This document shows, in pieces, positions 10,381 through 53,116 of a stretch of 64,000 nt of DNA. Position numbers and translations under genes: made by a program. The stretch is from positions 14,492 through 78,491 of the forward strand of contig CAYQJI010000001.1 in assembly GCA_964417865.1 (NCBI GenBank), in the 5' to 3' direction. Position 1 is the first letter of the stretch. Each line of letters begins with the position of its first letter. Under the pieces are notes generated by a model, which was not told where the DNA came from, searched no databases, and saw only the letters and a list, made by a program, of their open reading frames with translations. Source of the DNA: Candidatus Woesearchaeota archaeon (lineage in GTDB: Archaea > Nanobdellota > Nanobdellia > Pacearchaeales > GW2011-AR1).

Positions 10381-10414
10381 AATAATAATTAAATAAAAGT
10401 AAATTTATCTTAAT

Positions 10415-10906: not shown

Positions 10907-11043
10907 ATTTCAATAATTTTATGGATTATTTTTATTGGATAGTGGTTTTTTTATTAGTTTTAGGAGGACTCTATTTTTTATTTAAATATCTAAATATATT
11001 TTAATATAATAAAAGATAAGTTATTTTAATTATAAAATAAAAA

Positions 11044-12126: not shown

Positions 12127-12180
12127 TCTTTTTATCATTTATTAGTTAATTTTATAATATTCTTTTTCCATTTATTTAAT

Positions 12181-12642
12181 ATGATAAAAAATAAAAAAGG
12201 TGAAGGGAATGATTTATTTTTGAATAACTTTGTTGATATAATTTTAGATTTTATTTTTTTTGGAGTTCTTATACTCTTTTTATTAAATCAAAATTATAAA
12301 ATTTCTTTTTTAGAATTAAATTATGCTAAGAATATAGCTTTGTTAATAGATAATGCTAAACCTGGAATGACTATTACTTTTGATTTGTCTGATGCAGTAA
12401 AAATTGCTAAATCCAATGGTGTAGATATTAATGATATGATAAAAATTCAAGATAATAAAGTTTTAGTTACTCTTGCAAGGGGTAAATGGAGTTCTTATTC
12501 TTTTTTTAATAATATCAATATAGTTAGTTACTATCCTCTTTATAATACAAATAAAAAGGGTTATACAGGAGAATTTGTCTTTAAGATAGGAGAGTATATT
12601 GAAAATGAAGAGTTAAATCTTGAAAATGAAAAACTAAATTAA
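12181..12642 (+). CDS. pilin-like protein (class III signal peptide-like)
   Basis: KNKKG then hydrophobic helix FVDIILDFIFFGVLILFLL. Confidence 0.4.
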   Translation: MIKNKKGEGNDLFLNNFVDIILDFIFFGVLILFLLNQNYKISFLELNYAKNIALLIDNAKPGMTITFDLSDAVKIAKSNGVDINDMIKIQDNKVLVTLARGKWSSYSFFNNINIVSYYPLYNTNKKGYTGEFVFKIGEYIENEELNLENEKLN

Positions 12643-12654
12643 ATTAAAATAAAG

Positions 12655-13338
12655 ATGAAAATTTTTTTGATTAATAAAAAAAACAAAAGAGGAAATGTTT
12701 TTTCTATGTGGTGGTTTGTAATGGCAGTAATTGTCGCCGCAGTAATTTATATAATGGTTAATATGTTTTTTCAATCTCCCATAGATATTAGAGATATGGA
12801 GGTTAATAGTCTGATAAATCAGGTTGCAGATTGCATTTATTATGCTGGGCAATTTAACAATAATATTAATTTTATTTCTGAAAGTTCTTTAAGGCAAAAG
12901 GATATAAGTTCAGAAAATAAACTTATTAAAAATGAGCCAGAAATAGATAAAGAGTTCTTAATAAAAAATTGTCATTTAAATTTATTTGATGAAAATTATC
13001 CTAAAGAAAATCAGTATTTTATTCAAGTTAATATTTACAAATTGGACACAGCGTCAAATTCATTAAGTTATAAAGATAATCTTTTAGTAAATTATATTGC
13101 AGGAAATGAAATTTTTAAAGATTTTTGTGATTTACAATTACAAAAAAATTTTTATCCTTCATCTAATGTTTTAGAAGAAATTAAATACGAAGATAATATT
13201 TATAAGACTCTTCCATTCTGTAAAAATAAAAAATTTTATGCATTTACAAGGCAAATTATGGGGGATAATTCAAGAAATGAATATATTATAGAAATTATTG
13301 GAGGTATAAAAAAATTAAATGAGAATATTAAAGTATAA
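12655..13338 (+). CDS. pilin-like protein (class III signal peptide)
   Basis: KNKRG/NVFSMWWFVMAVIVAAVIYIMV. Confidence 0.5.
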   Translation: MKIFLINKKNKRGNVFSMWWFVMAVIVAAVIYIMVNMFFQSPIDIRDMEVNSLINQVADCIYYAGQFNNNINFISESSLRQKDISSENKLIKNEPEIDKEFLIKNCHLNLFDENYPKENQYFIQVNIYKLDTASNSLSYKDNLLVNYIAGNEIFKDFCDLQLQKNFYPSSNVLEEIKYEDNIYKTLPFCKNKKFYAFTRQIMGDNSRNEYIIEIIGGIKKLNENIKV

Positions 13339-13612
13339 AAAAGCTCAGATAGGGTATACTCTTAATTGGGGTGCAGCTTTAATATTAATTTTTATTATAT
13401 TATTAATATTTGTAATTGTTTCACTTTTATTTATTAATCATTCAAATTTAGTAAAATTTTTCGAACCAAAGAATACTCTAATAGAGGTTCAAAATCAACA
13501 TTTAATCTCAAAAAGTGAAATTTCTCTATCAGAAGTTACTTCAATGAATACAAAGGATTTTGATTCATATCATTCAAAAATTATAAATTTAATAAAATTA
13601 GAAAATGATTAA
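13319..13612 (+). CDS. small pilin-like protein
   Basis: KKAQIG then ALILIFIILLIFVIVSLLF. Shares the KKAQ(I/L)G leader with the next gene. Confidence 0.45.
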   Translation: MRILKYKKAQIGYTLNWGAALILIFIILLIFVIVSLLFINHSNLVKFFEPKNTLIEVQNQHLISKSEISLSEVTSMNTKDFDSYHSKIINLIKLEND

Positions 13613-14507
13613 AAATAAAAAAGCTCAATTAGGCATAAATATTTTTGTTTTAGGAACACTTATAGTTTGTGTTCTTGCTTTATTCAGTTTTAGCACTAAT
13701 TCTAATAAAGTTAAATTTAATTTTTATGGAATTTCTGCTTTAGAAGAAGAAAATACAAAAATTGAAAATGAACAATATCAACAATACTTAAAACTAAAAG
13801 AGAACATCCAAGAGTTTAAATGTTCTTATCAAGATTTATGCCAATGCCCTAAAGTAGATTCTCCTTATAATAAGTTAATTATCAACAATATGGATATTAA
13901 CGATTTAATAAGTAATGTTGACTGTTCAAATAAAGAACTTCTTAAAAATAATTTATTTAATTTAATGAAATCTATTTCAGATACTAATGCCGAGTATGTT
14001 GCAAGTCAATGTAAATGTAAAGATAATTGTAAAAATTATGCTGGACTTCTTGTTGATGAAGCTTGCAAAGATGATAATAACAAGATAGATCCTTATTTAT
14101 TATTGTCTATAATGATGCAAGAATCTGATTGTGTGGCCTTAGCTATAAATTCAAATAAAGAGAGTAATGGGAAAGTTTCTTCTTCTGACTGTGGTTTAAT
14201 GCAGATAAATACAAAAAGTCAAGAGGATTGTAAGGACCTTATTCAAAATCCAGCCTCTTCTATAAAAAGAGCAGTATCTCTTCTAAAAGATAAATTTGAT
14301 AAAGAATGCATTTTTACAGGGGGTAAATATAAAGATGGAGGCTTTACATGTGATGCTTCTACATTGATAATGCATTCTGATTGTACAAGAAGTGTTAAAT
14401 ATTCTGGTTGGGCTTCTAAAATAAGAGGTTATAATGGTTGGGGTGCAGGAGGTTCACCTTACTATACAGAACTTGTTTTAGAGAGATATTTAGAATTAAA
14501 AGGATAA
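13605..14507 (+). CDS. pilin-like protein fused to family-1 lytic transglycosylase (SLT/goose-lysozyme-like) domain
   Basis: KKAQLG + hydrophobic helix. SLT motifs: catalytic ES motif (SIMMQESDC...DCGLMQIN), NPASSIKRAVSLL, GYNGWGAG. Confidence 0.65.
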   Translation: MIKNKKAQLGINIFVLGTLIVCVLALFSFSTNSNKVKFNFYGISALEEENTKIENEQYQQYLKLKENIQEFKCSYQDLCQCPKVDSPYNKLIINNMDINDLISNVDCSNKELLKNNLFNLMKSISDTNAEYVASQCKCKDNCKNYAGLLVDEACKDDNNKIDPYLLLSIMMQESDCVALAINSNKESNGKVSSSDCGLMQINTKSQEDCKDLIQNPASSIKRAVSLLKDKFDKECIFTGGKYKDGGFTCDASTLIMHSDCTRSVKYSGWASKIRGYNGWGAGGSPYYTELVLERYLELKG

Positions 14508-14678
14508 AAAAATAAAATGACAGTTGAAGAAATTAAATCTTTTGCAAATAATATAAAAGTTGATTATAATTCTGAGTCAAATATATTATTAACAAATAAT
14601 AATCAAAAATAATTCTAAAAACCTTAAATAACTTCAAATTAACAAAAGCTTTTTAAATACTAAAAGATTATAAAAGAT

Positions 14679-15221
14679 ATGAAGTTAGAAAAAAAAATAA
14701 ACAAAAGAGGAGACCAAACACCTTGGATCTTAATCTCTTTGATTTTAGCACTTGCTGTTGGTGTATTTTTTATATATAACTTTTTTAGCTATAATCAATT
14801 ATTTTCTGCTTCAAATATTAATGATATAACTGATCTTTGTGTTAACACATATACAAAACCAGAAGAATTTGTTTCTAAAGGTTTACCTGCTTTTACAATA
14901 GAACAAGCAGGCAAAAAAATTGTTTATTCTAAAGGATTTACTTGTTATTATTTATCTAAACTAAGCACAAATAATCCAGCCTATAGTGCAGTTAGTGGAA
15001 GGAATAATTTAGATGAGATATGGCTCGCATGGGATGATAAAATTAAAATCATGGAGCCTAATAAAGATGAAACTTTCAGAAAAGAGGAGTGTGAGAAAGA
15101 TCCCAAGTTAATTTATGTTTATTCTGCAAAAGAAGAAAAAAATAAGTATACCTTAGAGGTTACAATATGTAACCCTGGGATAGCTCCTGCTCCTGCTGGA
15201 GGACATAATTCAGAAGAATAA
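14679..15221 (+). CDS. pilin-like Cys-rich protein (class III signal peptide)
   Basis: NKRG/DQTPWILISLILALAVGVFFIY, near-identical leader to 45258. Conserved GFTCYYLSKLSTNNP motif. Confidence 0.5.
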   Translation: MKLEKKINKRGDQTPWILISLILALAVGVFFIYNFFSYNQLFSASNINDITDLCVNTYTKPEEFVSKGLPAFTIEQAGKKIVYSKGFTCYYLSKLSTNNPAYSAVSGRNNLDEIWLAWDDKIKIMEPNKDETFRKEECEKDPKLIYVYSAKEEKNKYTLEVTICNPGIAPAPAGGHNSEE

Positions 15222-15358
15222 TTTTTCTCCATTCATTCTTTTTTAATAATCTTTTAAATTTATTATTTTTCTCTTTTATTATCATTAATTCTTTTTCTTA
15301 AATCTCTCTTTTTTTCTCTTATTTTAACAACTTTTTTAAATAACTAATTCTTTTTTAA

Positions 15359-16741
15359 TTGATGAAATCTTTAATGATAAAAGATAAAAGAGGTATGGAT
15401 ACAATGGCCTTTATTCTTGTTGCATTAATTCTTGCAGCAATAGTTCTTATTGCTTTGTCAGGAGGATTACAAATTGTTATAGGAAAATTAAAATCCGCTT
15501 TAGGAGGGCCTTCAAATGTGGATTTAATCAAAGGATTTTGTCAATTATCATGTAATCTCGGATTTACTAATGATTATTGTTATAAACCTAGAACATTAAC
15601 AGATAATTTAGGAAATAAACTTAATGATGTAACTTGCTATTTCCTTTCTAGATATAAGCCGAGTTATGAGATTGATTCTTGTCCTAAGATAACTTGCTCT
15701 GTTGAATTTAATAATAACATAAATTCCAAAGAGCAATTTAATCAATTACAATGCACAAAAAACAAATTATATTTACAATCTTTTATTCAAAATTCTGAAA
15801 AAGAATATACTTTGTTGTCAAAAGAATGTTCAAATTTCCTTGAAAAACCTCTAATAATTTCTAAAGATGAATTGAACCTTGATCCAACTCTTGAAAAATC
15901 TCTTAACAATTATATTTACTATTCTACAAATGCAGAATGGGTTGATAACTTTAATAAAGATTTACTTATCAATGCAATTAATGTTGCAACAGGAAAAAAA
16001 TCAAGCCAATTTTACCAAGATTTAGACCAGACTAATCCAGAAGCTGTAAAATTTTGTTATGAACCTATTAATTCATTAAATGGATTAACTGGATATGCTT
16101 ATTTAAAATCAAATTCAAAACTAATGAATAATGTTATTGATGCTTATCAAATTAATCAAAATGATTTTGAGCGTTGTGGCGTTTATTACTATTTTGTTGA
16201 TAAAACAAATGTAAGGTATGGAGGTCTATTATCTTATTACAAAACTTATAAATCTGCTGAAAATAGAGGGAGAGATTCCGATTCGTTTAAAGAGAATATA
16301 ATAAAACCTTTTGGTTGTATCAATAATGATTATAATAACTATCTCTCTCTTAGATATAATCAAAATGACCCAACAGGAAAGTATATCCAATTTTTAGATG
16401 AAAACAATAATCTTATTACTTTAGATTTTCCGTGTGAACCAGATATCTCAAGTTTTAAAGTAGACGAGGTCTGTAAAGCCTTTTATGATGAATTAGTTCA
16501 GAAATTTTCATTAGATCCTTATTTAGAGAATATTGAAACCTTTGATTTTTGTTCTAAAAAAATTAACCTTCTGGATTCCTCTGGAAATGAGATTTGTTCA
16601 GGATGTACCTGTTTTTATGTGCTTAATAATCTTAAAGAAGAAGATTTAACAAAAAGAGGTTATTTAAATGTCGCTAACAACGGAGTAACCATCTCAAATT
16701 TAGAGATTATAAAGTCTTGTAACCATGAATCTAAAACATAA
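15359..16741 (+). CDS. pilin-like Cys-rich protein (class III signal peptide), 460 aa
   Basis: KDKRG/MDTMAFILVALILAAIVLIAL, VTCYFLSRYKP motif shared with paralogs, more than 20 Cys. Confidence 0.5.
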   Translation: MMKSLMIKDKRGMDTMAFILVALILAAIVLIALSGGLQIVIGKLKSALGGPSNVDLIKGFCQLSCNLGFTNDYCYKPRTLTDNLGNKLNDVTCYFLSRYKPSYEIDSCPKITCSVEFNNNINSKEQFNQLQCTKNKLYLQSFIQNSEKEYTLLSKECSNFLEKPLIISKDELNLDPTLEKSLNNYIYYSTNAEWVDNFNKDLLINAINVATGKKSSQFYQDLDQTNPEAVKFCYEPINSLNGLTGYAYLKSNSKLMNNVIDAYQINQNDFERCGVYYYFVDKTNVRYGGLLSYYKTYKSAENRGRDSDSFKENIIKPFGCINNDYNNYLSLRYNQNDPTGKYIQFLDENNNLITLDFPCEPDISSFKVDEVCKAFYDELVQKFSLDPYLENIETFDFCSKKINLLDSSGNEICSGCTCFYVLNNLKEEDLTKRGYLNVANNGVTISNLEIIKSCNHESKT

Positions 16742-16743
16742 AA

Positions 16744-16857
16744 ATGTCAGATTACGGATTTCCTGAAAAAAGAAACAAAAGAAAAGAAAAAAGAAAAGAA
16801 AAAAAGAAACACCCTTATAAGCAGGGTGGAGCTCAAAGAACTTTTGAAATAAAATAA
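16744..16857 (+). CDS. small highly basic peptide (37 aa), unknown
   Basis: MSDYGFPEKRNKRKEKRKEKKKHPYKQGGAQRTFEIK. Intergenic position, not in ORF track. Confidence 0.15.
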   Translation: MSDYGFPEKRNKRKEKRKEKKKHPYKQGGAQRTFEIK

Positions 16858-16903
16858 AAGATAAAATAAATTATTTTATAAACTTATTTTTCTTTTTTTT
16901 AAA

Positions 16904-17758
16904 ATGTATGAAATAATATTTTTATTAATCTTAAGTTTTTGTTATCTTATATTTGCAGTTATTCAAGATTTTAAATCAAGAGAGATTGCAGATTGGCTTA
17001 ATTATTCTTTGATAATCTTTGCTTTAGGTTTTAGGTTTTTTTATTCTTTGTTCAATGAAAATAATTTTAATTTTTTTATCCAAGGATTTATTGGATTTCT
17101 TATTTTTTTAGGATTAGCTAACCTGTTTTATTATTCAAGACTTTTTGCAGGAGGAGATGCAAAACTTATGATGGCTTTAGGAGCAATTTTGCCATTAGAT
17201 TATTCTTTTAGTTCAAATCTCCTTTTATTCCTTAATTTTTTATTTTATTTTTTTATAGCTTCTTTAATTTATGTTTTAATTTCAAGCGTTTTTCTTACAT
17301 TAAAAAATTTTAAATCCTTTAAGATTAAATTTATTAAAGAAGTTAAATTTCAAAAAAGATTGATTATATTATCTTGGTTATTCTTTTTCTTATCAACAAT
17401 TTTAAACTTCGTCTTTTTATCTAAATTCAATTTCGTTTTTTTAGGATTTTTTATTTTAGTTTTAACTTATTCTTATATTTATTCAAAATCTTTAGATGAG
17501 TGTTGTATGATTAAAGAAGTTTTAACTAAAAATTTAACAGAAGGAGACTGGCTTTATAAGGATGTGAGATTAAAAAAAGAAACTATCAAATCTAAATGGG
17601 AGGGTTTAACAAAAGAAGAAATAAGAAAAATAAGATTAGAACTAAAAAAAGTAAAGATAAGACAAGGAATTCCTTTTTCCCCTACTTTTTTATTAGGCTT
17701 TTTGCTTTTTGTGATATCTTATTTTTTTAAAATTAATTTATGGAATCCTCTTTGGTAA
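16904..17758 (+). CDS. prepilin/preflagellin peptidase (A24 family, PibD/FlaK-like)
   Basis: Polytopic membrane protein with the catalytic A24 motif LFAGGDAKLMMALGA and an N-terminal Asp (IQDFKS). Confidence 0.7.
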   Translation: MYEIIFLLILSFCYLIFAVIQDFKSREIADWLNYSLIIFALGFRFFYSLFNENNFNFFIQGFIGFLIFLGLANLFYYSRLFAGGDAKLMMALGAILPLDYSFSSNLLLFLNFLFYFFIASLIYVLISSVFLTLKNFKSFKIKFIKEVKFQKRLIILSWLFFFLSTILNFVFLSKFNFVFLGFFILVLTYSYIYSKSLDECCMIKEVLTKNLTEGDWLYKDVRLKKETIKSKWEGLTKEEIRKIRLELKKVKIRQGIPFSPTFLLGFLLFVISYFFKINLWNPLW

Positions 17759-19444: not shown

Positions 19445-20527
19445 TTGTTATTAATCTTAATAACTGCTAATTTTGTGAGTGCCCAAAATTCAACTTGTAT
19501 TTATTTTTTTTATGGAGATGGTTGCCAACATTGTGCTAAAGTTGAGTCATTTATAAACAACCTAGAATTATATTCCCAATCTTCTCTTGATATTCATAGA
19601 TTTGAAATTTATAACAATCGTTCAAATATGCTTTTATTGAATCAATATTTTGATGTTTATAATATATCTAATTCCGAAAGAGGAATACCTGCCGTTTTAA
19701 TTGGCGAAAGTTATCTTATAGGAGATAGCCCAATCTCGGAGAATCTTATTGAATTAATAGGACAGAATCATGGAGCAGAATGCCCTGATTTTCAAACAAC
19801 AAATGGGGAAGGCAAGACAGGAAATACTTCCCCCATGGAAAAATTAAATTCATTATCCATCTTAACCGTTGTGGGAGCAGCACTGGTAGATTCAATAAAT
19901 CCATGTGCTATTGCCGTTTTGTTAATTTTAATGAGTGCTTTGTTAGTTGCAGGAGATAAAAAGAAAGCAATTAAAGCAGGTTTTGCTTTTACTATTTCAA
20001 TCTATATCGCTTATTTTTTGTTTGGATTGGGATTATTTTCAGCGATTCAAGTTTCAGGTCTTTCTTATTGGTTCTATAAAATAATTGGAGTTTTGGCAAT
20101 AGTAATAGGATTAGCAAATATCAAAGATTTCTTTTGTTATGGTGGCGGAGGTTTTGTTATGGAAATCCCAAGAGGCTGGAGACCCAAATTAAAAGAAATG
20201 TTAGGGAAAGTTACAACCCCTTTAGGAGCGTTTTTAATGGGTTTTGTAGTTTGCTTATTTGAGTTGCCTTGCACAGGCGGACCTTATATTGTTATCTTGG
20301 GGTTATTAGCAGATAGAATGACTATGTGGGCTTCAATTCCTCTTTTGTTATTGTATAATTTAGTATTTGTATTGCCCTTAATTATAATTACTCTGTTAAT
20401 TTATTTTGGCTTTGCTAATGTAGAAAAAGCAACAAAATGGAAGGACAATAATTTAAGAATTTTACACTTAATTGCAGGAGTAGTTATGTTGGCTTTGGGA
20501 ATCTTGATTACTTTTGGATTTGTTTAG
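19445..20527 (+). CDS. thiol:disulfide oxidoreductase fusion: extracytoplasmic thioredoxin-like domain + CcdA/DsbD transmembrane domain
   Basis: Signal/TM then CxxC (DGCQHCAK). Membrane domain has the two conserved Cys in INPCAIAVLL and ELPCTGGPY. Confidence 0.65.
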   Translation: MLLILITANFVSAQNSTCIYFFYGDGCQHCAKVESFINNLELYSQSSLDIHRFEIYNNRSNMLLLNQYFDVYNISNSERGIPAVLIGESYLIGDSPISENLIELIGQNHGAECPDFQTTNGEGKTGNTSPMEKLNSLSILTVVGAALVDSINPCAIAVLLILMSALLVAGDKKKAIKAGFAFTISIYIAYFLFGLGLFSAIQVSGLSYWFYKIIGVLAIVIGLANIKDFFCYGGGGFVMEIPRGWRPKLKEMLGKVTTPLGAFLMGFVVCLFELPCTGGPYIVILGLLADRMTMWASIPLLLLYNLVFVLPLIIITLLIYFGFANVEKATKWKDNNLRILHLIAGVVMLALGILITFGFV

Positions 20528-20531: not shown

Positions 20532-21404
20532 TTATGCACTTGCTAATTTAATTAAACCAAGCCACCTATTTTCTCCCAAGTTTAAATCTTGCCCTGCTAA
20601 TTCACAAGGAACACTATTTGTTGAACAATGTTTCTCTATAAAATTATGTTGAATTGTTAATCCAACCATGATGATTGGAGCAGACCAGAGAGCTTTTAAT
20701 CCTCTAAAATCATGCACTCTATCCTTAATTTTCATAAACACCGTTTCAATTTTATAGTTATGTACCTTTGTTCTTCGTACATTTTGTATTTTATGTTCCA
20801 CTACTAAACCTCCAAGCTTATTAGAATAGAATAGTTTTTTAAAAGCACGAGGGTAAAATTGTGCAGAATCTGTTTGTATAAACTTTGGCTTCCCCTTACC
20901 TACTGCTTTATTTATAAAAATTTTGGCTTCTTGGATTGTTGTTTGAGTAGAATAATGCACTCCTGTAATTAATCTAGTATTCCAGTCTACACAAGCCCAG
21001 AAATTATCTTTATGCCCCAATCTATTAATTTCGGTTTCATCTGCATAGAAAGAATCTCCAAGGTTATATCCTAATTTTTCTACAAAATTATGTACTTTCA
21101 AACTATATTTTCGCACCCAATCTAAAATAGAATTATGAGATACTTTGGTTTTGAAATGTCTATTTAATTGATTTCTCATTTTTCTACTTGAAAGATTAGA
21201 TAAATACATATCTATAGATAAGGTAATTGTCTCAGATGAGAATCGCATTCTATAAAACCCTTCATCATTTGTAAAAAATTTGTGACAAGATTTACAATAA
21301 TATTTTTGTATTTTCCCTCGGTGTTCTGTTTTTCTAAATCCTTTCTTTAGAAAACTTGTACTTGAACAATGTTTGCACTTTATCATACCTATATTCAGGT
21401 ACAT
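20532..21404 (-). CDS. IS6-family DDE transposase with N-terminal zinc finger (true start probably Met at 21386: MIKCKHC)
   Basis: CKHCSS...YYCKSCHKFF zinc finger. FYADETEI...WACVDWNTRLITG matches the IS6 DDE core. The first ATG lies inside the promoter repeat. Confidence 0.7.
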   Translation of the reverse strand: MYLNIGMIKCKHCSSTSFLKKGFRKTEHRGKIQKYYCKSCHKFFTNDEGFYRMRFSSETITLSIDMYLSNLSSRKMRNQLNRHFKTKVSHNSILDWVRKYSLKVHNFVEKLGYNLGDSFYADETEINRLGHKDNFWACVDWNTRLITGVHYSTQTTIQEAKIFINKAVGKGKPKFIQTDSAQFYPRAFKKLFYSNKLGGLVVEHKIQNVRRTKVHNYKIETVFMKIKDRVHDFRGLKALWSAPIIMVGLTIQHNFIEKHCSTNSVPCELAGQDLNLGENRWLGLIKLASA

Positions 21405-36779: not shown

Positions 36780-36850
36780 TGGCCTCACCAAGGATCGAAC
36801 TTGGGCATTGTCCACGTCAAGGACATAGTCTACCATTAGCTTATGAGGCC
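36780..36850 (-). tRNA. tRNA-Val (GAC)
   Basis: Acceptor GGCCUCA/UGAGGCC, anticodon loop UUGACGU, T-loop UUCGAUC, A73. One C12-A23 mismatch in the D stem. Confidence 0.75.
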
Positions 36851-36950
36851 TTTCTTTATTTTAAAGTAATATTTTATTTAAATTTTCTTATTTCTTTTTT
36901 GAAATTTATTAAATTCTAATAAGATTTATATATCTCTTTCTCGTTATTTC

Positions 36951-38840
36951 TTGATGATGTTTAAAGAGGGAAAAATTCATTTTTATTCAAGTAAAAAATT
37001 TTTTAAAAAAGGCCAATTAACAATCTTTATTATAGTTGCTTTATTAATTGTTTCTGGGGTTATTGTTTTCTTTTTATTTAGAAATAACATTATAAAAGAG
37101 AGTGTTCCTATAACAATTCAACCTGTTTATAACACTTTTGATTCTTGTATCCAGGATATTGGGAAAAAGGGGATATATCTATTAGAATCTCAAGGGGGTT
37201 ATATTTATCTTCCAGAATATCAAAAAGGTTCTTATAATTTCCCTTCTTCATCTTATCTAAACTTTATGGGCAATAATATCCCTTTTTGGGATTATTTTTC
37301 TTCTACTTCATTAGAAAAAAAGCAAATTCCTTCTAAAACCGATATGGAGGATCAATTAAAAAGGTTTATAGAATCCAATGTAAAAAATTGTGATTTTTCT
37401 ACAAATTATGCTCAAGGATTTGAGATTACACTTAAAGATTTTAGTGTTTCTCCTAAAATTTTAGATAATAAAATAACAATTGATTCTTCATTTAATATGA
37501 ATATTAGCTTAAATAACGAATCTTTTTCTATTAATCATTATAAAACAGATTTAACTTCTAATTTAGGAGTGTTATATGAAGATGCTCTAAAAGTTTATAG
37601 TCAAGAAGAGGAAACTCTTTTATTAGAGAATTATACGATTGATGTTTTAAGGCTTTATGCTCCTGTTGATGGTTTTGAGATATCATGCTCTCCAAAGGTT
37701 TGGAATATCAATAAAATCTATTATGATTTAAAAAACTCTCTTGAGCCAAATATACAATCAATAACCTCAGAAAAAAATAAAAATCCTAAACCTGAAAATA
37801 ATAAATACTTCTATAGAGATTTTAAAACACAAGGAAGTGTTAAATTTTTAACTTTTATGGATTGGCCAATGTTTTTAGAAGTTAACCCTTCTCAAGGAGA
37901 TTTACTCATTGCTAATCCTGTTGGAAATACCCCTGAACTAAGTATTTTAGGTTTTTGTTTTATTCCTTACCACTTTGTTTATTCTTTAAATTACCCTGTA
38001 CTTGTTCAAATTTCAAAGAATGATGAAACATTTCAATTCCCTCTTGTTGTCTATATAGATAAAAACAAACCAAAATCTGCTTTAACAAAAAAAACAGATT
38101 CTTCCTCTATTGATATTTGTTCTAACAAAGTTACCCCTATAACCCTAAATGTTCATGATACTTCAAATAATTTAATTCCTTTTAGTGTTAATTTTGAATG
38201 TATAAATGAGGATTGTTATATTGGAAATTCTTCTACAGGTAATTCTACATTTTTATTCCCAGAATGTGTGAATGGTGTTGTAAAAATAAATTCAAATAAT
38301 TTTCTTGAATCAAAAGTAGTATTAGACAATACTCTCCAAGAATCAGAACTAAATATCTATTTAACAAAAACTTATCCTATCGGTGTTCAAATTAATTTAG
38401 ATAACATGCCTTCTAATGAAGAAGCTTTAATCTCTTTTAATTTTAATGATTATTCAAAAACCCTTTTTTACCCTAAAGAAAAAATAATAAACCTTTCTGA
38501 AGGTGTTTATAATATTTCAGTAAAAGTTTATAAAAATTCTTCTTTAACTATCCCAGAAACAGAGACAGAGATATGTGTGCCTATAAAATCAGGAATAAAA
38601 GGTTTATTAGGAATATCTGAAAATAGTTGTTCAAAGATTAAAATTCCTAGTCAAATTATGTCCAATGTTCCTGTTGGGGGAGGGATAATCCGAGATTATG
38701 AGATTTCAGAATCACAATTAAAAAATTCAAGAATTATACAATTAAATGTTCAATCTTTAAAAACTCCAACTGACTTTTTAAGTATACAAAAAAATGTTTT
38801 GTTAACAGATGAAAATGAAATAGAGGTAAATTTAATATGA
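36951..38840 (+). CDS. pilin-like large extracellular protein (class III signal peptide KKGQ/LTIFIIVALLIV), 629 aa
   Basis: N-terminal positively charged stretch then hydrophobic helix. Overlaps the next gene by 4 bp (ATGA). Confidence 0.45.
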   Translation: MMMFKEGKIHFYSSKKFFKKGQLTIFIIVALLIVSGVIVFFLFRNNIIKESVPITIQPVYNTFDSCIQDIGKKGIYLLESQGGYIYLPEYQKGSYNFPSSSYLNFMGNNIPFWDYFSSTSLEKKQIPSKTDMEDQLKRFIESNVKNCDFSTNYAQGFEITLKDFSVSPKILDNKITIDSSFNMNISLNNESFSINHYKTDLTSNLGVLYEDALKVYSQEEETLLLENYTIDVLRLYAPVDGFEISCSPKVWNINKIYYDLKNSLEPNIQSITSEKNKNPKPENNKYFYRDFKTQGSVKFLTFMDWPMFLEVNPSQGDLLIANPVGNTPELSILGFCFIPYHFVYSLNYPVLVQISKNDETFQFPLVVYIDKNKPKSALTKKTDSSSIDICSNKVTPITLNVHDTSNNLIPFSVNFECINEDCYIGNSSTGNSTFLFPECVNGVVKINSNNFLESKVVLDNTLQESELNIYLTKTYPIGVQINLDNMPSNEEALISFNFNDYSKTLFYPKEKIINLSEGVYNISVKVYKNSSLTIPETETEICVPIKSGIKGLLGISENSCSKIKIPSQIMSNVPVGGGIIRDYEISESQLKNSRIIQLNVQSLKTPTDFLSIQKNVLLTDENEIEVNLI

Positions 38841-41800
38841 TAAAAAAAATAAACTATCTATTTTTGGTATTTTTCATTATTTTATTTTCTAATTTAGTCT
38901 TTTCAGCAACAATTTCAGATTTTTTTAAAACTCAAACAAAAGATAATTTGAACACAGAAAACTCTCCAATTTATCAATGTAATCAAGGAGAAGATTTTAT
39001 CGCATTTATTTCTCCTTTACAATGCTCCCCAGAAATTGTTAGAGATGATTTGCTTGAAGAAAATGATGTGCCGATTTATTGTAAAATTAATCTTTATAAA
39101 ATTAATCCTTTCGTTGATGTTTCTGGAATAAAAAGTGTATCTTTCTTAGGGAATCATTCTAAAGAAATAAGCAGTGTTTCTTATTACCCTGCATATTCTG
39201 CTTTAACAGGAGTTCAATCTAATTTAAAAAATCCAGGTTATATAAAAATTCTATTAAAAAAAGAACCAAATACCTCTAAGATTCCTGATTTTGTAGAGGG
39301 AAATCTTAGCGCAAAAATCTCTTATACCCTAAAAGATGAGGTGGGAATTCATGATTATTCTATTAATTTAAAAGAAATCTCCAACGATTATGAATGGGAT
39401 AATGTAAAGAATAAATATAGTTTTTGGAATAATAAGGGATATATAAGATTAGCAAATTTAGAAAACAATAAAGCAACTCTCTGGGTTTATGATTCAAAAG
39501 ATAGAAAAATATCCTCTTTGACTTTATCTAAAGGAGAAAATTCTAAAATAATATACTCTAATGATTTTGGATGCACTGGTTTACAAGTTAAACTACAAGA
39601 TTTAGAAAACCCTGAAACTAAAGCTCAAATTTCTATTAACTCTAATATTGTAGATTTAAAACAAAACGATAAGTTTCTTGATAACAAGTGTTCTATAATC
39701 TCTATTGATAAATACTCTGAAGTTGTTAAAATAAGATGCAACGAAGATAATGGTATAAAAGATTATTCTTTATTTAATTCTTATAAAGTTAATCTTTCTA
39801 TTGATGGAACAGAATACATCAAAGATATTGGAGATTTCCTTTTTTCAGCTGATAATAAGGATATTTATCTTGTTGGGATTAGTTCTGTATTATTAGATAA
39901 TAGCCCTCAAAATATTGTTTGGATTGGGGAGATACCTAAAGAAATTTCCAATTCTGCACAAAGTCTAAACAGTTATCAAATAACTGGTTTTTCTTCATTA
40001 ATCAGCCAAATAATCTCAGCTAATAATATTAAAAATGAAAATTCTTTCTCTTTAGAGAGTCTAACAAAAAGTTTTGGTGCTTTTTTATATGAAAGCTTTT
40101 TTTACAAGATAGGTTCTGGTCAACAAATTCATTTTTTAAAACAAAGAAAAGATTACACTATTTCAGGAAAAAAAATTGTATTTAATGGATTTGATACCCC
40201 CAAAGATGAAGAGCTTTTAGGAGAAATTAAAAATAATTATGAATTAGCAAAAGAAAATTACGAATCTGTAATAAAGGACTTTTCTTCTGAATCTCTTATT
40301 ACTAATAAAAATGAAAATGTTTATACAGGAGAAAGAGCCTTGTATCAAGAAATTATCTTATCTTATAATGTAAATCAAAAATTTACTGCATCCCAATTAT
40401 GCGAGAAGTTTTTCTCTAATTACCCTAATTCATTGTATATTCCTGAATTAAAAGAAAAATATTGTAATGAACTAAAATTATCTTCTTCTACAAATAGCGC
40501 ATTTGTTTCAATAAATCAAAACTTGTATAAAATCTCTTTAAATTATATTTCTGAACCTTCTTTTGAAGAGTATGGTGCAAGTTTCTTTGTAAATGATGGT
40601 TCTAATAGAGCTTCTTTTTCATTAAACAGAAATGGAATTTATGATTTAAACTCTTATAAAATTCCTTTATCAATAAGATTAAGTTCAATAGATAGTGACC
40701 CAAAGGGAAATTATGTTAATATTCAGATTAGTTCTTCAGATGAAAACCTTAAAAAACAGATTAGTCAAACAACTTACAAAATTTATAAGAATGATCAATT
40801 AAAAATAGGAAATTATTTTATTGTTGTTTCTAATATTAATTTAAAAAAAGAGGCTTTTGTTTCATTGGTTCCTTCAATTAGTTCTTCTTCGTCACAAGCA
40901 AATTTCAGTTTTAAGATAGGAATTGAAAAAAGGGCAATTAAATTAACTCCTGAACAAACTAAATCTCTTATAAAAAATGTAAATGAAAAAATTTCTCTAT
41001 TATCAGATATTTCTAATGGCTTAGAATCAGTTATTGAACCTTTAAAAGGAGCATGTTATCTTTCTACTGCAACTCTTTTAATAAAAAATTTCATTTCAGG
41101 TTCAACAAGCCAAGGTATGGCTAGACTTCTTGTTATGAAGGGTGTTGAAGGAAATTCTGGATGGTATACTAAATGTGAAAAAGAGATGAAAGAAAATCCT
41201 TCTAAATTTAGTTCATTAAATAGTTGTCTTTCTAATCATTCTTCAGAGATAGAAGAAGATGTTCAAAAGACCTCTAGTGTTATAGATAAGCTTAATAAAG
41301 AAATAAAAGACGAACAATCTCAAGATTCTTATCAATTATCAACAAAATCATCTCTGGGAATTCTAACAACTACAATAGACAAAGGAAAATTGAAAGATAA
41401 TTTCTTATTAAACAAAGATAAACTAAACAGAATTATTAATAATACAAGAGAAATAACTGATAATACAAAAGAAAATCTTAACAAATTATTAGAAAATCAA
41501 GAAGGTTTAAAAAAATCAATGAGCTTTGAACAAGCAAGAGATTTGAATTTATATTTAATGATTTTGAGTGAAACAGGTATTTCTGATAATTTAAAAGAAA
41601 TAGCAAATACAAAATTAGAATCTTTGATTAATGAAGTTTCTTTAACATCTGTATCTAATGAGCAAATTTTAAGTTTATCCTCTTATCTTGGAATTGATTA
41701 TAAAAAAATTGGAATTTTAAGTTCTGATTCTAAAGGAAATATCCCCTACTTAGGATTAGTATTAAAAGATTTAAGCAAATTGGATAGTAAGTTTTCATTA

Positions 41801-44800
41801 AATGAATTTTCTAATTCTCCTGTTTATTTATTTGAATATCTCAACAAAGAAAATAATAAAGATACCCTTTTCTACCTACTATTATTGGAAAAAAAGGGTA
41901 ATCTTTATACCCCTAAGAATAATAAAATTTTTAAAATAGATAAGACAAATAATGGGTTCAATGTTGTTGATACAGAGAGCTCACCTTTCCCTTTTAATAA
42001 CATTCAATTTATAAGTTCAAGTTTCTCCAATAAATATCAAAATCCTGAATTAAAATATTATGATTCTAGTAATTCTGATAAATTACCTTCAGTTGTTCCT
42101 ATTGATACAGCAAATGGATGGTATGCTGGAATAGAACCTCTTGTTTATGGAAATAAAGATGCGATTTTAGATTCTGGAAGAATTAATATTTTTTATTTAT
42201 GTAATGTTGGAATAGATGGAAAAGAAGAATTTTCTCTTAGGAACTCTCAATCAACTGATGATCTCTGTCAAATGATTGATTTGGGAATTTCTGAAAGTTA
42301 TAAATACATTATGGGTTTGTCAGAAACAGAATCAGTAAGATTAACTACAAAAGCAATTAGTGCAATACAACAAGCACAAAAAGCATCTAACCAAGCAGAG
42401 GGTTCTAGCGTTAAAATACTAGATCAAGTATTTAAAGTAGGAAAATCCCAAGTAGATACCAATTCATTTAGATGTGAAGACTTTATGCCTCATCAAGATT
42501 GTTTAACAATATTTAATCTTTGTGACCCTGTAATATGTCCTTCAAGTAGATGTGATTTTGGAGGAAAATATAAAGTGGATAATGTTGTGCAATCTGGAAT
42601 TTTAGGTAGTATAATGCTTTGTTTACCTAACGCTAAAGAAGGAATTCTCTTCCCTATTTGTTTAACCGGAATTAAAGCAGGAGTTGATTCATTAAATTCT
42701 GTATTAAAATCTTATAGTGATTGTTTAAATATAAGCTTACAAAATGGACAAACAGTAGGTGTTTGTGATGAAATTAATAGTTTTTATATATGTGACTTTG
42801 TTTGGAGACAAGTTTCTCCTATCTTGAACTTAGGAATTCCTACAATAGTTGAATCTTTATTAAACAAAGGGAGAGGTGGTGGAGAATATATTAATGTTCA
42901 AGCTTCATGGGAACTTACTAAATCTGCTGCAGATTATTTTGTTAATTCTTATGGGCAAAATTCTAAAAAAGCTTTTCTTTTGAGAAGTTCTGAAAATATT
43001 GGAGGAGAAGTTTGTAAACTTTATACTTCTTTTACTACTCAAGATCTTTCTGGTGTTGTAAAAAGTTTATTAAAATCAGATTCTCCTGCACAATTCACAG
43101 GAAGATTTGATGAAATACCTTTAACAACAGTCACAGAACATCCAACATCCCATTATAAAGTATATTATCATATTTATGCAGGAACAGATAGTGGTGCAAA
43201 TTATAAAGTTTATCTTAGAAACAAAGAAACTTATTATCAAGATACTTCAACAGCATTAGTTGTTGATAGTGGTTATGTGCCTAATGGAAATTACTATTCT
43301 CAAACTAAAGATATAATTGGGAATTCAGGATATAATGAGCTGTGTATATCAGTTAATAATCAAGAAGTATGTGGTTTTAAAGAAGCTTCTACTTCTATGA
43401 CAATTAATCTTTTGTCTGATGAATATGTTAAATCTATTTCTACAAAAAATGATATAAAAACAGAGGCACAATGTGCAGGAGGAATAAATCAAGGAATAGT
43501 AAGAATCTGTTCTTCTAAAAGTCCTGGAGAAGGTATTGATGCTTATTATAATACTGAAAATGCTAGATGGAAACAAGTAGGGGTTTGTGGTAATGAAAAT
43601 ATGAAATGTTGGCTTGATACAAATAGTGTTAAAGATGCTATTGTGTCTAAGAGTGTTGAAGAATCAACTGTTCAATCTTTAGAAGATTCTTATAAATCCC
43701 TTATTAATACTGAAGGAGAATTAACTGAAGATCAATTGAATGAATTTTTTGAAGAATTAAGTCAAGAAAAAGATATTAATTCAAAAATAAATAGAATTTC
43801 AAACATCTTAGACAAGGTTTATAATAGCAAATATAAAGCAAATTTAATAATATTAAGAGGAGATCTTTATAATGAGCTTTTAATTTCATTAATAAGATCT
43901 AATCAAAATATTGGTAACATTAATTTAAAAACAAAAGATAGTTCAATTTCTCAAACCGATTTAAATTCTCAAAATTCAAATTCTCCTTCTTTAACTCCAA
44001 CAGAGGTGGATTCTTCTGAAGATTATAGATCTCCTGTTTTTTCCTTAAATGCTTTAATTGTTAGTGGCGAAGAGAAAGTTAATAACTCTTTATCTTTTTT
44101 TAAGGATAAATCTAGTTCATCTTTTTCTAATGCAAAAGAAGCTGTTTTAGAAATTTATGAAGATGAAAAAGTTTCACCTTACTGTTATTATACTGAACCA
44201 GATAAGAAAAATTATAAAAATATTAATAATGAATTTCAAAAATCTTTTTCTGTATATACATCAGATGCTAAAACAGCGCTTTTTTATGTTGATAAAGAAA
44301 ATTGTCTTTTAAACCCAGACGATATTAATGTTCTTTCAGATCAAAATAAGAAATTAAACTTATTACAAAAAGGAGATATAATTTCTTATGTTAAAGATGG
44401 TTCTTCTTCAAATAGTGTCATTTTTATAGAATGGATTAATCAAAAGAACTATATTGCAAAAGTATTGGATTGGAATGGTGGGAATATATTAACAGGAAGA
44501 AAATATCAAGAAATTGAAGTTAATCTTTCTGATAATTCTCATCCTGTTTATATGATAATAAAACCTATTCCAAAAGATGACTTTTCAAATCTACCTCCTG
44601 TTGATTCTTTAAGAGATTATTTTAAAAACGAAATTTATGCAATAAAACTTTCAAGTGAAGGTGAAGGACCTATTACCTCTTTTGATATAACATATACAGA
44701 AGCTAGTTCTTTATCTTCCGCTAGAAGTGAGTTAATAAATAAAATATCTTCTTGGATTGGAAAACAAGCTCCTAGTGATGTAACAAACTGTTGGAAAGCT

Positions 44801-45217
44801 GTACAAAAAATATATTCTTCTGCAGGATTTAATTATGAATGTATTTATTCTGATCCAGTAGGAAAAACTTATGAAAAAGTTACTAAACTTGTTACAGGAA
44901 CAACAAACAAAGATATTCTTCAAGTAAATCCTACTAGATGTTGCAAGAATAATAAATGTGATGAAGAACAAAAGTTAAATCTCTTAAATCCTGGAGATAT
45001 AATCTCTTATGTATATAATGAAAAAATAGGGCATAATGCCATTTTTATAGAGTGGTTTGATAAAGAAAAGGGAATAGCTAAATTATTTGATTGGAATGAT
45101 GTTAGGGATAACACCCATTATTACAGGTATTATAAATTGGTTACATTGAAAGATGATTCTCATCCTGTTTATATGATTTGGAAACCTGTTAAATCTTGGT
45201 CTTCTTCTTCAACTTAA
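38837..45217 (+). CDS. giant secreted Cys-rich surface protein (2126 aa) with two C-terminal papain/NlpC-P60-like modules
   Basis: Sec signal peptide. Cys clusters. C-terminal repeats with TNCWKAVQKIY...GDIISYV...GHNAIFIEW...DWN (Cys/His/Asn-Asp order). The first repeat lacks the Cys and His. Confidence 0.6.
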   Translation: MIKKINYLFLVFFIILFSNLVFSATISDFFKTQTKDNLNTENSPIYQCNQGEDFIAFISPLQCSPEIVRDDLLEENDVPIYCKINLYKINPFVDVSGIKSVSFLGNHSKEISSVSYYPAYSALTGVQSNLKNPGYIKILLKKEPNTSKIPDFVEGNLSAKISYTLKDEVGIHDYSINLKEISNDYEWDNVKNKYSFWNNKGYIRLANLENNKATLWVYDSKDRKISSLTLSKGENSKIIYSNDFGCTGLQVKLQDLENPETKAQISINSNIVDLKQNDKFLDNKCSIISIDKYSEVVKIRCNEDNGIKDYSLFNSYKVNLSIDGTEYIKDIGDFLFSADNKDIYLVGISSVLLDNSPQNIVWIGEIPKEISNSAQSLNSYQITGFSSLISQIISANNIKNENSFSLESLTKSFGAFLYESFFYKIGSGQQIHFLKQRKDYTISGKKIVFNGFDTPKDEELLGEIKNNYELAKENYESVIKDFSSESLITNKNENVYTGERALYQEIILSYNVNQKFTASQLCEKFFSNYPNSLYIPELKEKYCNELKLSSSTNSAFVSINQNLYKISLNYISEPSFEEYGASFFVNDGSNRASFSLNRNGIYDLNSYKIPLSIRLSSIDSDPKGNYVNIQISSSDENLKKQISQTTYKIYKNDQLKIGNYFIVVSNINLKKEAFVSLVPSISSSSSQANFSFKIGIEKRAIKLTPEQTKSLIKNVNEKISLLSDISNGLESVIEPLKGACYLSTATLLIKNFISGSTSQGMARLLVMKGVEGNSGWYTKCEKEMKENPSKFSSLNSCLSNHSSEIEEDVQKTSSVIDKLNKEIKDEQSQDSYQLSTKSSLGILTTTIDKGKLKDNFLLNKDKLNRIINNTREITDNTKENLNKLLENQEGLKKSMSFEQARDLNLYLMILSETGISDNLKEIANTKLESLINEVSLTSVSNEQILSLSSYLGIDYKKIGILSSDSKGNIPYLGLVLKDLSKLDSKFSLNEFSNSPVYLFEYLNKENNKDTLFYLLLLEKKGNLYTPKNNKIFKIDKTNNGFNVVDTESSPFPFNNIQFISSSFSNKYQNPELKYYDSSNSDKLPSVVPIDTANGWYAGIEPLVYGNKDAILDSGRINIFYLCNVGIDGKEEFSLRNSQSTDDLCQMIDLGISESYKYIMGLSETESVRLTTKAISAIQQAQKASNQAEGSSVKILDQVFKVGKSQVDTNSFRCEDFMPHQDCLTIFNLCDPVICPSSRCDFGGKYKVDNVVQSGILGSIMLCLPNAKEGILFPICLTGIKAGVDSLNSVLKSYSDCLNISLQNGQTVGVCDEINSFYICDFVWRQVSPILNLGIPTIVESLLNKGRGGGEYINVQASWELTKSAADYFVNSYGQNSKKAFLLRSSENIGGEVCKLYTSFTTQDLSGVVKSLLKSDSPAQFTGRFDEIPLTTVTEHPTSHYKVYYHIYAGTDSGANYKVYLRNKETYYQDTSTALVVDSGYVPNGNYYSQTKDIIGNSGYNELCISVNNQEVCGFKEASTSMTINLLSDEYVKSISTKNDIKTEAQCAGGINQGIVRICSSKSPGEGIDAYYNTENARWKQVGVCGNENMKCWLDTNSVKDAIVSKSVEESTVQSLEDSYKSLINTEGELTEDQLNEFFEELSQEKDINSKINRISNILDKVYNSKYKANLIILRGDLYNELLISLIRSNQNIGNINLKTKDSSISQTDLNSQNSNSPSLTPTEVDSSEDYRSPVFSLNALIVSGEEKVNNSLSFFKDKSSSSFSNAKEAVLEIYEDEKVSPYCYYTEPDKKNYKNINNEFQKSFSVYTSDAKTALFYVDKENCLLNPDDINVLSDQNKKLNLLQKGDIISYVKDGSSSNSVIFIEWINQKNYIAKVLDWNGGNILTGRKYQEIEVNLSDNSHPVYMIIKPIPKDDFSNLPPVDSLRDYFKNEIYAIKLSSEGEGPITSFDITYTEASSLSSARSELINKISSWIGKQAPSDVTNCWKAVQKIYSSAGFNYECIYSDPVGKTYEKVTKLVTGTTNKDILQVNPTRCCKNNKCDEEQKLNLLNPGDIISYVYNEKIGHNAIFIEWFDKEKGIAKLFDWNDVRDNTHYYRYYKLVTLKDDSHPVYMIWKPVKSWSSSST

Positions 45218-45257
45218 TCATGAATAATCTTTTAAACTCTTTTTTATTTCTTTTTAT

Positions 45258-46280
45258 ATGATGGGGTTTTTTATAAATAGAAGAGGTGAACAATCTTCTT
45301 GGATTTTGATCTCTTTAATCTTAGCTTTAATTGTTGGAGGATTTTTTACTTATAGATATTTTGAAACAAATGGAACTTTTTTAGAGAACATTCAAGGCGT
45401 ATGGGATGTAAAATCTTCTTGTCAGAATTATTGTTATTCTATGCAAACAGACAATTACTGTCATTCTACATTTAATTTAAAATATGAATTTAATAATAAA
45501 AAAATTCTTTTAAAAGATATCACCTGTAATTTTTTATCAAGTATAAATAAAAATAATCCGTTGAATATAGAAAAATGTAATTTTATACAATGTAATGATC
45601 TAATTTTAGAGAATAATCAAAATGAACATAAAAGACAAGAAATTTGTTATGACAATGTAAACATAAATAGAGTTTATTCTTTAAATAATAACTCTCTCCC
45701 GCAAACTTTAGAATCAACTAACTGTTTAGGAGACAAAAATTTAGAATGTTCTTCAAAACCAAATTTTGAAGGAATAAAAACTTCAATAAACTCTTTGAAT
45801 GATGAAGCAAGAAAAAATGTTTTTAATACATTAGCTTTATGTGTTAATTCTAAATCTGTTGGTGATGATTGTTGGCAAGCAGTTAATGCTATTTATAAAA
45901 AGTCAAATGTTGTTTTTTCTTGTGTTTATTCTGATTTTCCTGGAAAAAAATATGTAGTTAGTTCAACTAAAACTTCTTTAAACCTTCCTTTTCTTGTAGC
46001 TTCTGATAAAGATTCTTGTTTGAAATATGGATTAAATGAAAATGAAAAATTAGATTTATTAAAAACAGGGGATATAATCTCTTACATTTGGGATAAAAGC
46101 ACAGGGCATAATGCAATATTTATAGAGTGGGTTGATAAAAATGGAAAAATTGCAAAACTTTTTGATTGGAATGGTCAAAATAAAAATTATAGATATTATG
46201 AGGAAAATCTTTCTGATCTTAAACATCCTGTTTATATGATTTGGATGCCTAAACAAAAATTTTCTAGTTCTTCTGCATAA
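45258..46280 (+). CDS. pilin-signal protein fused to papain/NlpC-P60-like putative peptidase domain
   Basis: RRG/EQSSWILISLILALIVGGFF leader, paralogous to 14679. ITCNFLSS motif. DDCWQAVNAIY...GDIISYIWDKSTGHNAIFIEWVD...DWNG. Confidence 0.55.
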   Translation: MMGFFINRRGEQSSWILISLILALIVGGFFTYRYFETNGTFLENIQGVWDVKSSCQNYCYSMQTDNYCHSTFNLKYEFNNKKILLKDITCNFLSSINKNNPLNIEKCNFIQCNDLILENNQNEHKRQEICYDNVNINRVYSLNNNSLPQTLESTNCLGDKNLECSSKPNFEGIKTSINSLNDEARKNVFNTLALCVNSKSVGDDCWQAVNAIYKKSNVVFSCVYSDFPGKKYVVSSTKTSLNLPFLVASDKDSCLKYGLNENEKLDLLKTGDIISYIWDKSTGHNAIFIEWVDKNGKIAKLFDWNGQNKNYRYYEENLSDLKHPVYMIWMPKQKFSSSSA

Positions 46281-53026: not shown

Positions 53027-53116
53027 TGGCTCTGAGGAGGATTTAACTCCCGACCTCTGCCTTTCTCAATATTAATCATTCATGAGAGCAGCGCTCTAAC
53101 ACTGAGCTACAGAGCC
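53027..53116 (-). tRNA. tRNA-Met/Ile2 (CAU) with about 18-nt intron 3' of the anticodon (elongator type)
   Basis: Acceptor GGCUCUG/CAGAGCC, D GCUC/GAGC, anticodon stem CUGCU with loop CUCAUG. Intron AAUGAUUAAUAUUGAGAA. 3' stem GGCAG, T-stem GGGAG/CUCCU, A73. Confidence 0.7.

Follow-up and report, generated by a model that had tools for sequence, protein, structure and literature searches.

Extracellular proteins of more than 2000 residues that carry an SLT domain have been described from Pacearchaeota and Woesearchaeota as fam00969 (Castelle et al. 2021, PMC8204110), "large lytic murein transglycosylases" were reported from Woesearchaeota by Vigneron et al. in 2022 (PMC9723730), and a role in binding and degrading the walls of bacteria has been put forward for the large SLT-domain proteins (PMC8204110, PMC9723730). 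The SLT domain of some large proteins is the published clue in the debate over whether the hosts of Woesearchaeota and Pacearchaeota are bacteria or archaea. Here we set beside these proteins a locus from a Candidatus Woesearchaeota archaeon (assembly GCA_964417865.1, contig CAYQJI010000001.1, positions 14,492 to 78,491; this stretch of 64,000 nucleotides is the window), in which three co-directional open reading frames (ORFs) encode a prepilin-like protein (p1), a secreted protein of 2126 residues (the giant), and a pilin-like protein fused to a putative hydrolase module (p3). We posit that p1, the giant and p3 make up a surface-displayed device that degrades the bacterial cell wall, a reading of the sequences to which we give a probability of about 0.6. 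By its core, the giant appears to belong to the published family of large SLT proteins of DPANN archaea (fam00969, as delimited by its description): it shares with SLT-bearing proteins of 1.9 to 3.6 thousand residues from these lineages a core of ~1700 residues and the chromosomal locus. Unlike them it lacks an SLT domain, none being found in it by Pfam, and its tail consists of two NlpC/P60-like modules. The two papers mention the SLT domain alone and describe neither an SLT-less core, a p1 partner, synteny, other heads nor pilin fusions, and our literature searches returned no description of an NlpC/P60-like module or a pilin-hydrolase fusion in DPANN archaea. What is new is the unnamed divergent head, the pilin fusion and the syntenic two-gene unit with exchangeable heads, whereas the hydrolase superfamily and the giant family were known. 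The SLT proteins then become one flavour of a universal syntenic unit of p1 and giant, in which at least five kinds of murein-degrading enzymes replace one another as the head; among them is an NlpC/P60-like subfamily named by no current profile library and also grafted onto a type IV pilin-like protein.

The giant has 76 homologues of 1.4 to 3.6 thousand residues, all from DPANN bins (Nanoarchaeota, Woesearchaeota and Pacearchaeota); most of them align to ~77-80% of the query, and the first ~1700 residues are kept in all. Identity across the core is 32-38% overall and 41-61% to the reference in residues 1200-1600, a segment with many invariant cysteines and the motifs CDPVICPSSRCDxGG and GGGEY. 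No sequence match to the core was found in Pfam, PHROG or the PDB, and AlphaFold performed worst on residues 1208-1415, where the predicted local distance difference test score (pLDDT) is 25-45 even with 37 aligned sequences. What follows the core varies in content and in length, from 1 to 1840 residues. Pfam places SLT (PF01464) in the tails of 14 of the 76 proteins and Glucosaminidase, Amidase_3, Peptidase_M23 or DUF1615 in others; 23 of the 76 carry the module that ends the giant of the window, two of them (P0028 and P0033) in combination with SLT. The module, a Pfam domain for peptidoglycan degradation, or both stand in the tails of at least 38 of the 76, and several of these tails have more than one such domain. 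Further C...GD(V/I)L...H...H stretches, which resemble canonical NlpC/P60 motifs and have no Pfam match at E<=0.01, occur in the tails of P0041, P0046 and P0079. The core would be vertically inherited and the C-terminal tail would serve as an exchangeable enzymatic head. A preliminary description of this stretch had read the locus as a source of cell-wall hydrolases, and the orthologous giants with SLT, Glucosaminidase, Amidase_3 or M23 at the same tail position strengthen that reading. It is quite unlikely, we think, that p1 and the giant core are instead the cell's own surface layer or scaffold, something like a stalk and canopy, on which hydrolase tails are accessories with little role in host contact. 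Such an envelope would accord with a pair that is lineage-wide, vertically inherited and set amid housekeeping genes, with the single N-terminal anchor of p1 and the anchorless, Sec-type giant, and with some orthologues that are essentially tail-less; but the core, at the identities given above and rich in cysteine, is unusually conserved for a surface-layer protein, and the module and peptidoglycan-degrading domains in half or more of the tails would find no substrate in an archaeal envelope.

The partner of the giant is as constant as its core. We compared the window with seven other loci (L001, L002, L004-L008), whose giants are 32-83% identical to that of the window and end in the module, SLT, glucosaminidase, or SLT with M23. 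An orthologue of p1 (610-681 residues in the seven others) stands directly upstream of the giant in all eight. In the window the giant ATG and the p1 stop share four nucleotides (ATGA), and a p1-giant overlap of the same length recurs in six of the seven others, the remaining one (L008) having a gap of two nucleotides; p1 would thereby be translationally coupled to the giant. The neighbourhood of S3Ae and L44e with TFIIB, S8e and LSM, usually also with RNase Z, is retained in six of the seven others with local rearrangements, L008 being a short contig on which the S3Ae side alone is visible. Since the locus is kept while the tails differ, these giants are orthologues with swapped heads and not mobile cassettes. 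The p1-giant unit of the window may accordingly be viewed as the local form of a surface apparatus conserved across Woesearchaeota, Pacearchaeota and Nanoarchaeota, the lineages to which all of the more than 533 homologues of p1 belong (41-45% identical over 97% of its length, without a Pfam domain).

Class III-signal surface proteins of archaea include pilins and the sugar-binding proteins of Sulfolobus (reviewed in PMC6098224). In p1, a basic leader ending in KKG is followed by the hydrophobic helix QLTIFIIVALLIVSG, as in class III proteins, and [KR]G-Q-[VL]-T-I-F-I-I, with Gln at +1, recurs at the N-termini of 120 p1 homologues. In p3, RRG is followed by EQSSWILISLILALIVGG, again a class III-like signal and nearly identical to that of the ORF at 14679 in the type IV pilus locus of the window. 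Because the neighbouring genes are archaeal, the "pilin" signals of this locus are taken to be archaeal class III signals. Like known class III proteins, p1 and p3 have a short, basic leader that ends in [KR]G and precedes Q, E or D and a hydrophobic helix of ~20 residues; unlike them, they have a globular part that is very large (~580 residues in p1) or enzymatic (p3), and the Pfam Class_IIIsignal model matches neither at E<=1.

The pilin-like part of p3 has a closer relative within the window. Residues 6-156 match nearly the whole of the 180-residue ORF 14679-15221 of the pilus locus (34% identity, BLASTP E 2e-19), and a weaker match joins p3 to the N-terminus of ORF 15359-16741 (E 3e-6); from the former match it follows that p3 is a pilin-like paralogue that acquired a hydrolase module. 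The pilus locus contains several small class III-signal ORFs, and both a prepilin peptidase and an assembly ATPase are encoded in the window. Only four homologues of p3 were found, all in close Woesearchaeota relatives (three orthologues and an exact database copy); p3 follows the giant in L007 and L008 and is absent from L001, L002 and L005, the count covering these five loci and leaving out the downstream genes of L004 and L006. That the hydrolases are pilus-associated, as had been suggested in advance, agrees in part with the paralogy of p3, the signal of p1, and the peptidase and ATPase encoded in the window; the giant itself carries a Sec signal, and its attachment to a pilus is a proposal of ours. 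A rival reading is a released bacteriolysin: rather than belonging to a contact or pilus apparatus, the giant and p3 would be lytic enzymes that are shed or diffuse away to kill competitors or release nutrients at some distance, with class III signals that do no more than export or anchor. In its favour, the giant has no anchor, its incorporation into a pilus is our own deduction, and archaeal peptidoglycan hydrolases have been shown experimentally to kill bacteria (PMC12352652). We nevertheless regard this scenario as very improbable: the giant is strictly coupled in translation to a membrane- or pilin-anchored p1 in nearly every genome examined, a conserved core of 1700 residues is hard to explain in a simple secreted lysin, and p3 retains the whole pilin-like domain of its paralogue.

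Both the giant and p3 end in the same module, a unit of ~180 residues of which hmmsearch delimits three copies: giant 1723-1917, giant 1944-2126 and p3 162-340. BLASTP aligns p3 169-339 with giant 1948-2125 at 41% identity over 179 residues (E 6e-37) and p3 with giant 1727-1918 at 32% over 257 alignment columns including gaps (E 2e-25). The unit is built of an N-terminal helix, a Cys helix, an insert of ~45 residues and a beta-sheet, and its motifs run in the order CW...IY, GDIISY...GHNAIFIEW, DWN. Homologous end modules with this motif order had been noticed before, and BLASTP and the alignment bear them out, but the length then given, ~110 residues, was too short. Two copies in the giant, the first of them inactivated, had likewise been proposed, and Ala1766 and Asn1859 do stand in place of Cys and His; the counterparts of copy 1 in the orthologues P0006 and P0007 also lack the catalytic residues in the alignment. 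Copy 1 is probably a non-catalytic binding or structural domain, and may act as a binding or spacer domain ahead of the intact copy. Among 113 full-length copies, the Cys is present in 109 and the His in 109; the third position is the Asp of DWN in 93 and His in six more. Cys and His are missing together in each degenerate copy that was individually inspected (giant copy 1, P0006, P0007 and P0038), which is the pattern predicted by a catalytic dyad. Short Ser-rich tails directly follow the module in the giant (SWSSSST, 45196-45214) and in p3 (KFSSSSA, 46260-46277), and the ends of close orthologues resemble them. In L007 the frame of the giant shifts between module copies 1 and 2 (11928-11948), so that the called protein has 1976 residues; copy 2 is intact in another frame at 78% identity, and the shift reflects an error in the assembly or else a frameshift of very recent date.

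The module could not be named by comparison with profile libraries. Scans of p1, the giant and p3 against Pfam, NCBIfam and PHROG gave nothing significant, in keeping with the earlier statement that no named family obviously matches the module, and weak matches of locus proteins to TcfC, Phospholip_A2_4 and a tRNA-splicing endonuclease were dismissed as noise. The giant and p3 miss the Pfam gathering threshold for NLPC_P60 (PF00877); among 22 module copies gathered from homologues of the giant and p3 (alignment A2), the best E-values against Pfam were 0.14 for NLPC_P60 and 0.0069 for Amidase_6, and CHAP (PF05257) was not among the matches of any copy, CHAP structures being seen solely as fold neighbours of the module model. 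PDB sequence searches with p3 and with profiles of the module, the giant and p1 yielded chance matches alone (gasdermin-B and plastocyanin, for example). The AlphaFold model computed with A2 (pLDDT 87.8, predicted template modelling score 0.86) has a papain-like alpha+beta fold in which an N-terminal helix packs against an antiparallel beta-sheet. Its Cys, His and third polar residue are predicted to lie in the non-permuted order, at the N-terminus of a helix (C46, helix 46-56), at the start of a strand (H127, strand 126-136) and on the next strand (D146 and N148, strand 141-151). The best structural matches of the model are all murein endopeptidases or amidases, and hhalign of A2 with Escherichia coli MepS places GDIISY..GHNAIFIE on the catalytic His motif GDLVLF..RHVGIYIG. 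On these predictions and alignments we place the module in the NlpC/P60 (papain-like) hydrolase superfamily, as a highly diverged branch that has as yet no name. The preliminary description had proposed a Cys-His hydrolase of papain-like, NlpC/P60 or CHAP type, to be abandoned should the fold prove non-enzymatic or the Cys and His fall off a catalytic dyad; the placement of both residues on helix and strand, their conservation and the alignment of the His with that of MepS all speak for it. Its suggestion that the module may be novel holds in that the module is unnamed, but not beyond that, the superfamily being known and the giant family already published.

Solved NlpC/P60 (PF00877, MEROPS C40) and CHAP enzymes, represented here by E. 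coli MepS/Spr, Bacillus subtilis LytE and CwlO, Clostridioides difficile Acd24020, Tn916-type conjugative hydrolases and phage CHAP lysins, are only 12-19% identical to the module. It differs from them in an extra N-terminal helix, in the ~45 residues inserted after the Cys helix and ahead of the sheet, and in its occurrence in archaea without murein. The hairpin from His to Asp is longer, the third residue lying 19 residues after the His within DWN (Asp in 82% of copies); in MepS the His...His spacing is ~12 residues.

Searching 1.84 billion representatives with the module profile returned 388 proteins at E <= 1e-3, so that ~390 cluster-representative proteins now labelled hypothetical can be annotated with it; the cluster names of the small matches are uninformative, and many such "small" matches are fragments of giants. 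The weaker tier (E 1e-24 to 1e-8) consists of compact bacterial lipoproteins, and two bacterial bridges pass the NLPC_P60 cut-off of 23 bits (P0146 at 29.8 bits and P0157 at 24.7 bits). These lipoproteins of Gram-negative bacteria, the A6 family, have the consensus GSCWDYI[DN]...GDW[IL]Y[FY]IN[HY]SY..EHSGIF..WVD...LSYPG and are, by sequence, the nearest non-archaeal relatives of the module. They share with it the CW(D) helix, the GD...H...F..W(V)D strand and the ending; they differ in lacking the ~45-residue insert and DWN, for which they have SY.G, and they bear lipoprotein signals, are often tandem duplicates and only in part reach the Pfam NLPC_P60 threshold. Examples are P0146, P0157, P0164, P0171 and P0173, and most members have no Pfam or NCBIfam name. 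Their hosts, known from contigs of metagenome-assembled genomes (L012-L091), include Bacteriovoracaceae, Bacteriovorax, Halobacteriovorax and other Bdellovibrionota; Sulfurovum, Arcobacteraceae and Nitratifractor; Chromatiales, Thiotrichales and Achromatium; Bacteroidota; and others. The family is common in the predatory Bacteriovoracaceae/Bdellovibrionota, in Campylobacterota, in sulfur-oxidising Gammaproteobacteria and in Bacteroidota, a distribution that would fit a module derived from bacteria.

The substrate is a separate matter. The NlpC/P60 superfamily includes acyltransferases, phospholipases and non-peptidoglycan amidases, and the module might act on the pseudomurein peptides of methanogen partners, on target-membrane lipids as a phospholipase or acyltransferase, or on the giant itself in self-processing. 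We think this rather unlikely, given that the closest structural neighbours of the model cut murein, that module and SLT occur together in single tails, that the module replaces the murein-specific SLT, glucosaminidase, Amidase_3 and M23 at the same position of orthologues, and that its nearest relatives outside the archaea are Gram-negative lipoproteins, those of predatory Bacteriovoracaceae included. The archaeon itself lacks murein, and the target is therefore most likely the peptidoglycan of bacteria. Three points thus argue for murein: the producer is archaeal, the alternative heads at the same position are murein-specific, and the model most resembles endopeptidases and amidases that act on murein; the bond cut would most likely lie in the peptide stems or be the amide between N-acetylmuramic acid and L-Ala.

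We therefore return to the surface device against bacterial walls and posit the following arrangement. The prepilin-like p1 would undergo processing, become anchored in the membrane or a pilus-like fibre, and there hold the Sec-exported giant. The head displayed by the giant of the window would be the divergent NlpC/P60-type hydrolase with the putative triad Cys1985-His2066-Asp2085. In parallel, p3 would put the same module on a pilin-like paralogue from the pilus locus, which itself contains an SLT protein with a pilin signal, and the giant tail, p3 and the SLT-pilin would together cut the peptidoglycan of bacteria that the cell contacts or preys on.

Several points weigh against this arrangement. 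The signal of the giant is of the Sec and not of the pilin type, and its binding to p1 or to a pilus is something that we infer. Some orthologues are nearly tail-less (P0023 has 21 residues past the core), and the function of the core must therefore be independent of the hydrolase. No module copy reaches any Pfam or NCBIfam threshold, the Foldseek E-values of the module are only ~0.06, and the Cys-His geometry is deduced from secondary-structure position and alignments; as the superfamily includes enzymes that do not act on murein, the fold does not fix the substrate. Finally, we know of no bacterial host for this lineage.

Among described systems, polymorphic toxins (Rhs, CdiA and MafB-type) offer a parallel, for these too have a long conserved N-terminal body and interchangeable C-terminal effectors; archaeal examples are those of Makarova et al. 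2019, as cited in PMC12352652. The giant differs from them in having no adjacent immunity gene or orphan cassette array: in the loci compared it is followed by p3, TFIIB or unrelated small ORFs, with no conserved immunity-like partner, and a producer without murein would have no need of one. It differs also in that its locus is fixed amid housekeeping genes and its effectors are wall hydrolases rather than nucleases or deaminases.

A bolder reading, which we hold to be unlikely, would make the p1-giant unit the defining host-attack organ of Woesearchaeota and Pacearchaeota, a pilin-anchored giant whose exchangeable heads open bacterial murein and whose invariant, disulfide-rich, hydrophobic helical part of the core (~1208-1415) inserts into or fuses with the host membrane as a nutrient conduit. 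Were it true, cross-domain parasitism of bacteria would be usual in one of the largest clades of archaea, and its machinery would be identified. To our knowledge, no culture of a Woesearchaeota or Pacearchaeota member together with its host has been obtained. For the question of bacterial-host parasitism, the 180-residue module, p1 and the Cys-rich core are concrete expressible targets.

The coordinates of the locus, and those of the pilus locus, are collected in Table 1.

Table 1. Features of the p1-giant-p3 locus and of the type IV pilus locus (positions in the window)
Feature	Position	Strand	Basis and remarks
TATA-like box TTTATATAT	36925-36933	+	Read from sequence; 21 nucleotides upstream of p1 ATG 36954
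p1	36954-38840	+	ORF; 36951 is an alternative start; ~628-629 residues; archaeal class III (type IV prepilin-like) signal and large globular domain
p1 class III signal	37005-37082	+	KKG then QLTIFIIVALLIVSGVIVFFLF; putative prepilin-peptidase site after Gly, then hydrophobic helix; strongest hydrophobic segment of p1
Giant secreted protein	38837-45217	+	ORF; 2126 residues; Sec signal, ~1700-residue core, two NlpC/P60-like modules
Giant Sec-type signal peptide	38837-38905	+	MIKKINYLFLVFFIILFSNLVFS; sole segment of the giant at the transmembrane threshold; matching N-termini in nearly all orthologues
Giant conserved core, residues ~24-1700	38906-43936	+	phmmer core alignment to homologues; conservation profile
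Most conserved part of core, residues 1200-1600	42434-43636	+	Cys-rich (17 Cys); hydrophobic helical stretch 1208-1415
Module copy 1, giant 1723-1917	44003-44587	+	hmmsearch domain and alignment; Cys to Ala1766, His to Asn1859, DWN kept
Module copy 2, giant 1944-2126	44666-45214	+	Cys1985 (44789-44791), His2066 (45032-45034), Asp2085 (45089-45091); Asn2087
p3	45258-46280	+	ORF; 340 residues; pilin-like protein fused to hydrolase module
p3 pilin-like part, residues 1-156	45258-45725	+	Class III-like signal RRG then EQSSWILISLILALIVGGFF, and Cys-rich globular domain
p3 module, residues 162-340	45741-46277	+	Cys205 (45870-45872), His284 (46107-46109), Asp303 (46164-46166); Asn305
Archaeal type IV pilus locus	5479-17758	+	Pfam and N-termini; complete-looking
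T2SSE ATPase	5479-7821	+	Pfam
724-residue ORF	7877-10051	+	No Pfam match; possibly membrane platform
Class III-signal SLT protein	13605-14507	+	Pfam and N-terminus
Pilin-like ORFs	14679-15221, 15359-16741	+	N-termini
Prepilin peptidase (Peptidase_A24)	16904-17758	+	Pfam

The ORF coordinates confirm the preliminary outline of three co-directional, overlapping or abutting genes, p3 starting 40 nucleotides past the giant stop. The start of p1 is most likely the ATG at 36954, downstream of the TATA-like TTTATATAT, which is probably the promoter of the p1-giant operon and would leave a leader that is short or absent. The window has a G+C content of ~26%, and the locus is flanked by archaeal genes (phosphoglycerate mutase, GINS51, ribosomal S3Ae and L44e, TFIIB, S8e, an LSM protein and RNase Z) and adjoined by tRNA genes; exact or near-exact copies of its proteins are found in Woesearchaeota metagenome bins. 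We rejected a bacterial source for the window in view of the archaeal neighbouring genes, and a phage or mobile element as the source of the locus in view of its fixed position amid housekeeping genes and the lack of PHROG matches.

Directly 5' of p1, an ORF of ~70 residues occupies a conserved position in three distant genomes (L001 7918-8136, L002 7879-8085, L005 5850-6065); it is absent from the window, where a tRNA-Val gene (36780-36850, minus strand) holds that position. A 90-nucleotide Rfam tRNA match at 53027-53116 (minus strand, 54.5 bits) was not reported by ARAGORN and may be a long-arm or intron-containing tRNA. Assembly GCA_030154545.1 contains both a contig identical to the window locus (L009) and L007, with its 83%-identical orthologous locus, so that two related strains are combined in this bin. 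Between the pilus locus and the RPA/RadA genes lies an ORF for an IS240-type DDE transposase (20532-21404, minus strand). At 19445-20527 the window encodes a membrane protein with a DsbD_TM/SfLAP-like domain, which may be relevant to disulfide handling in the many Cys-rich exported proteins of the window.

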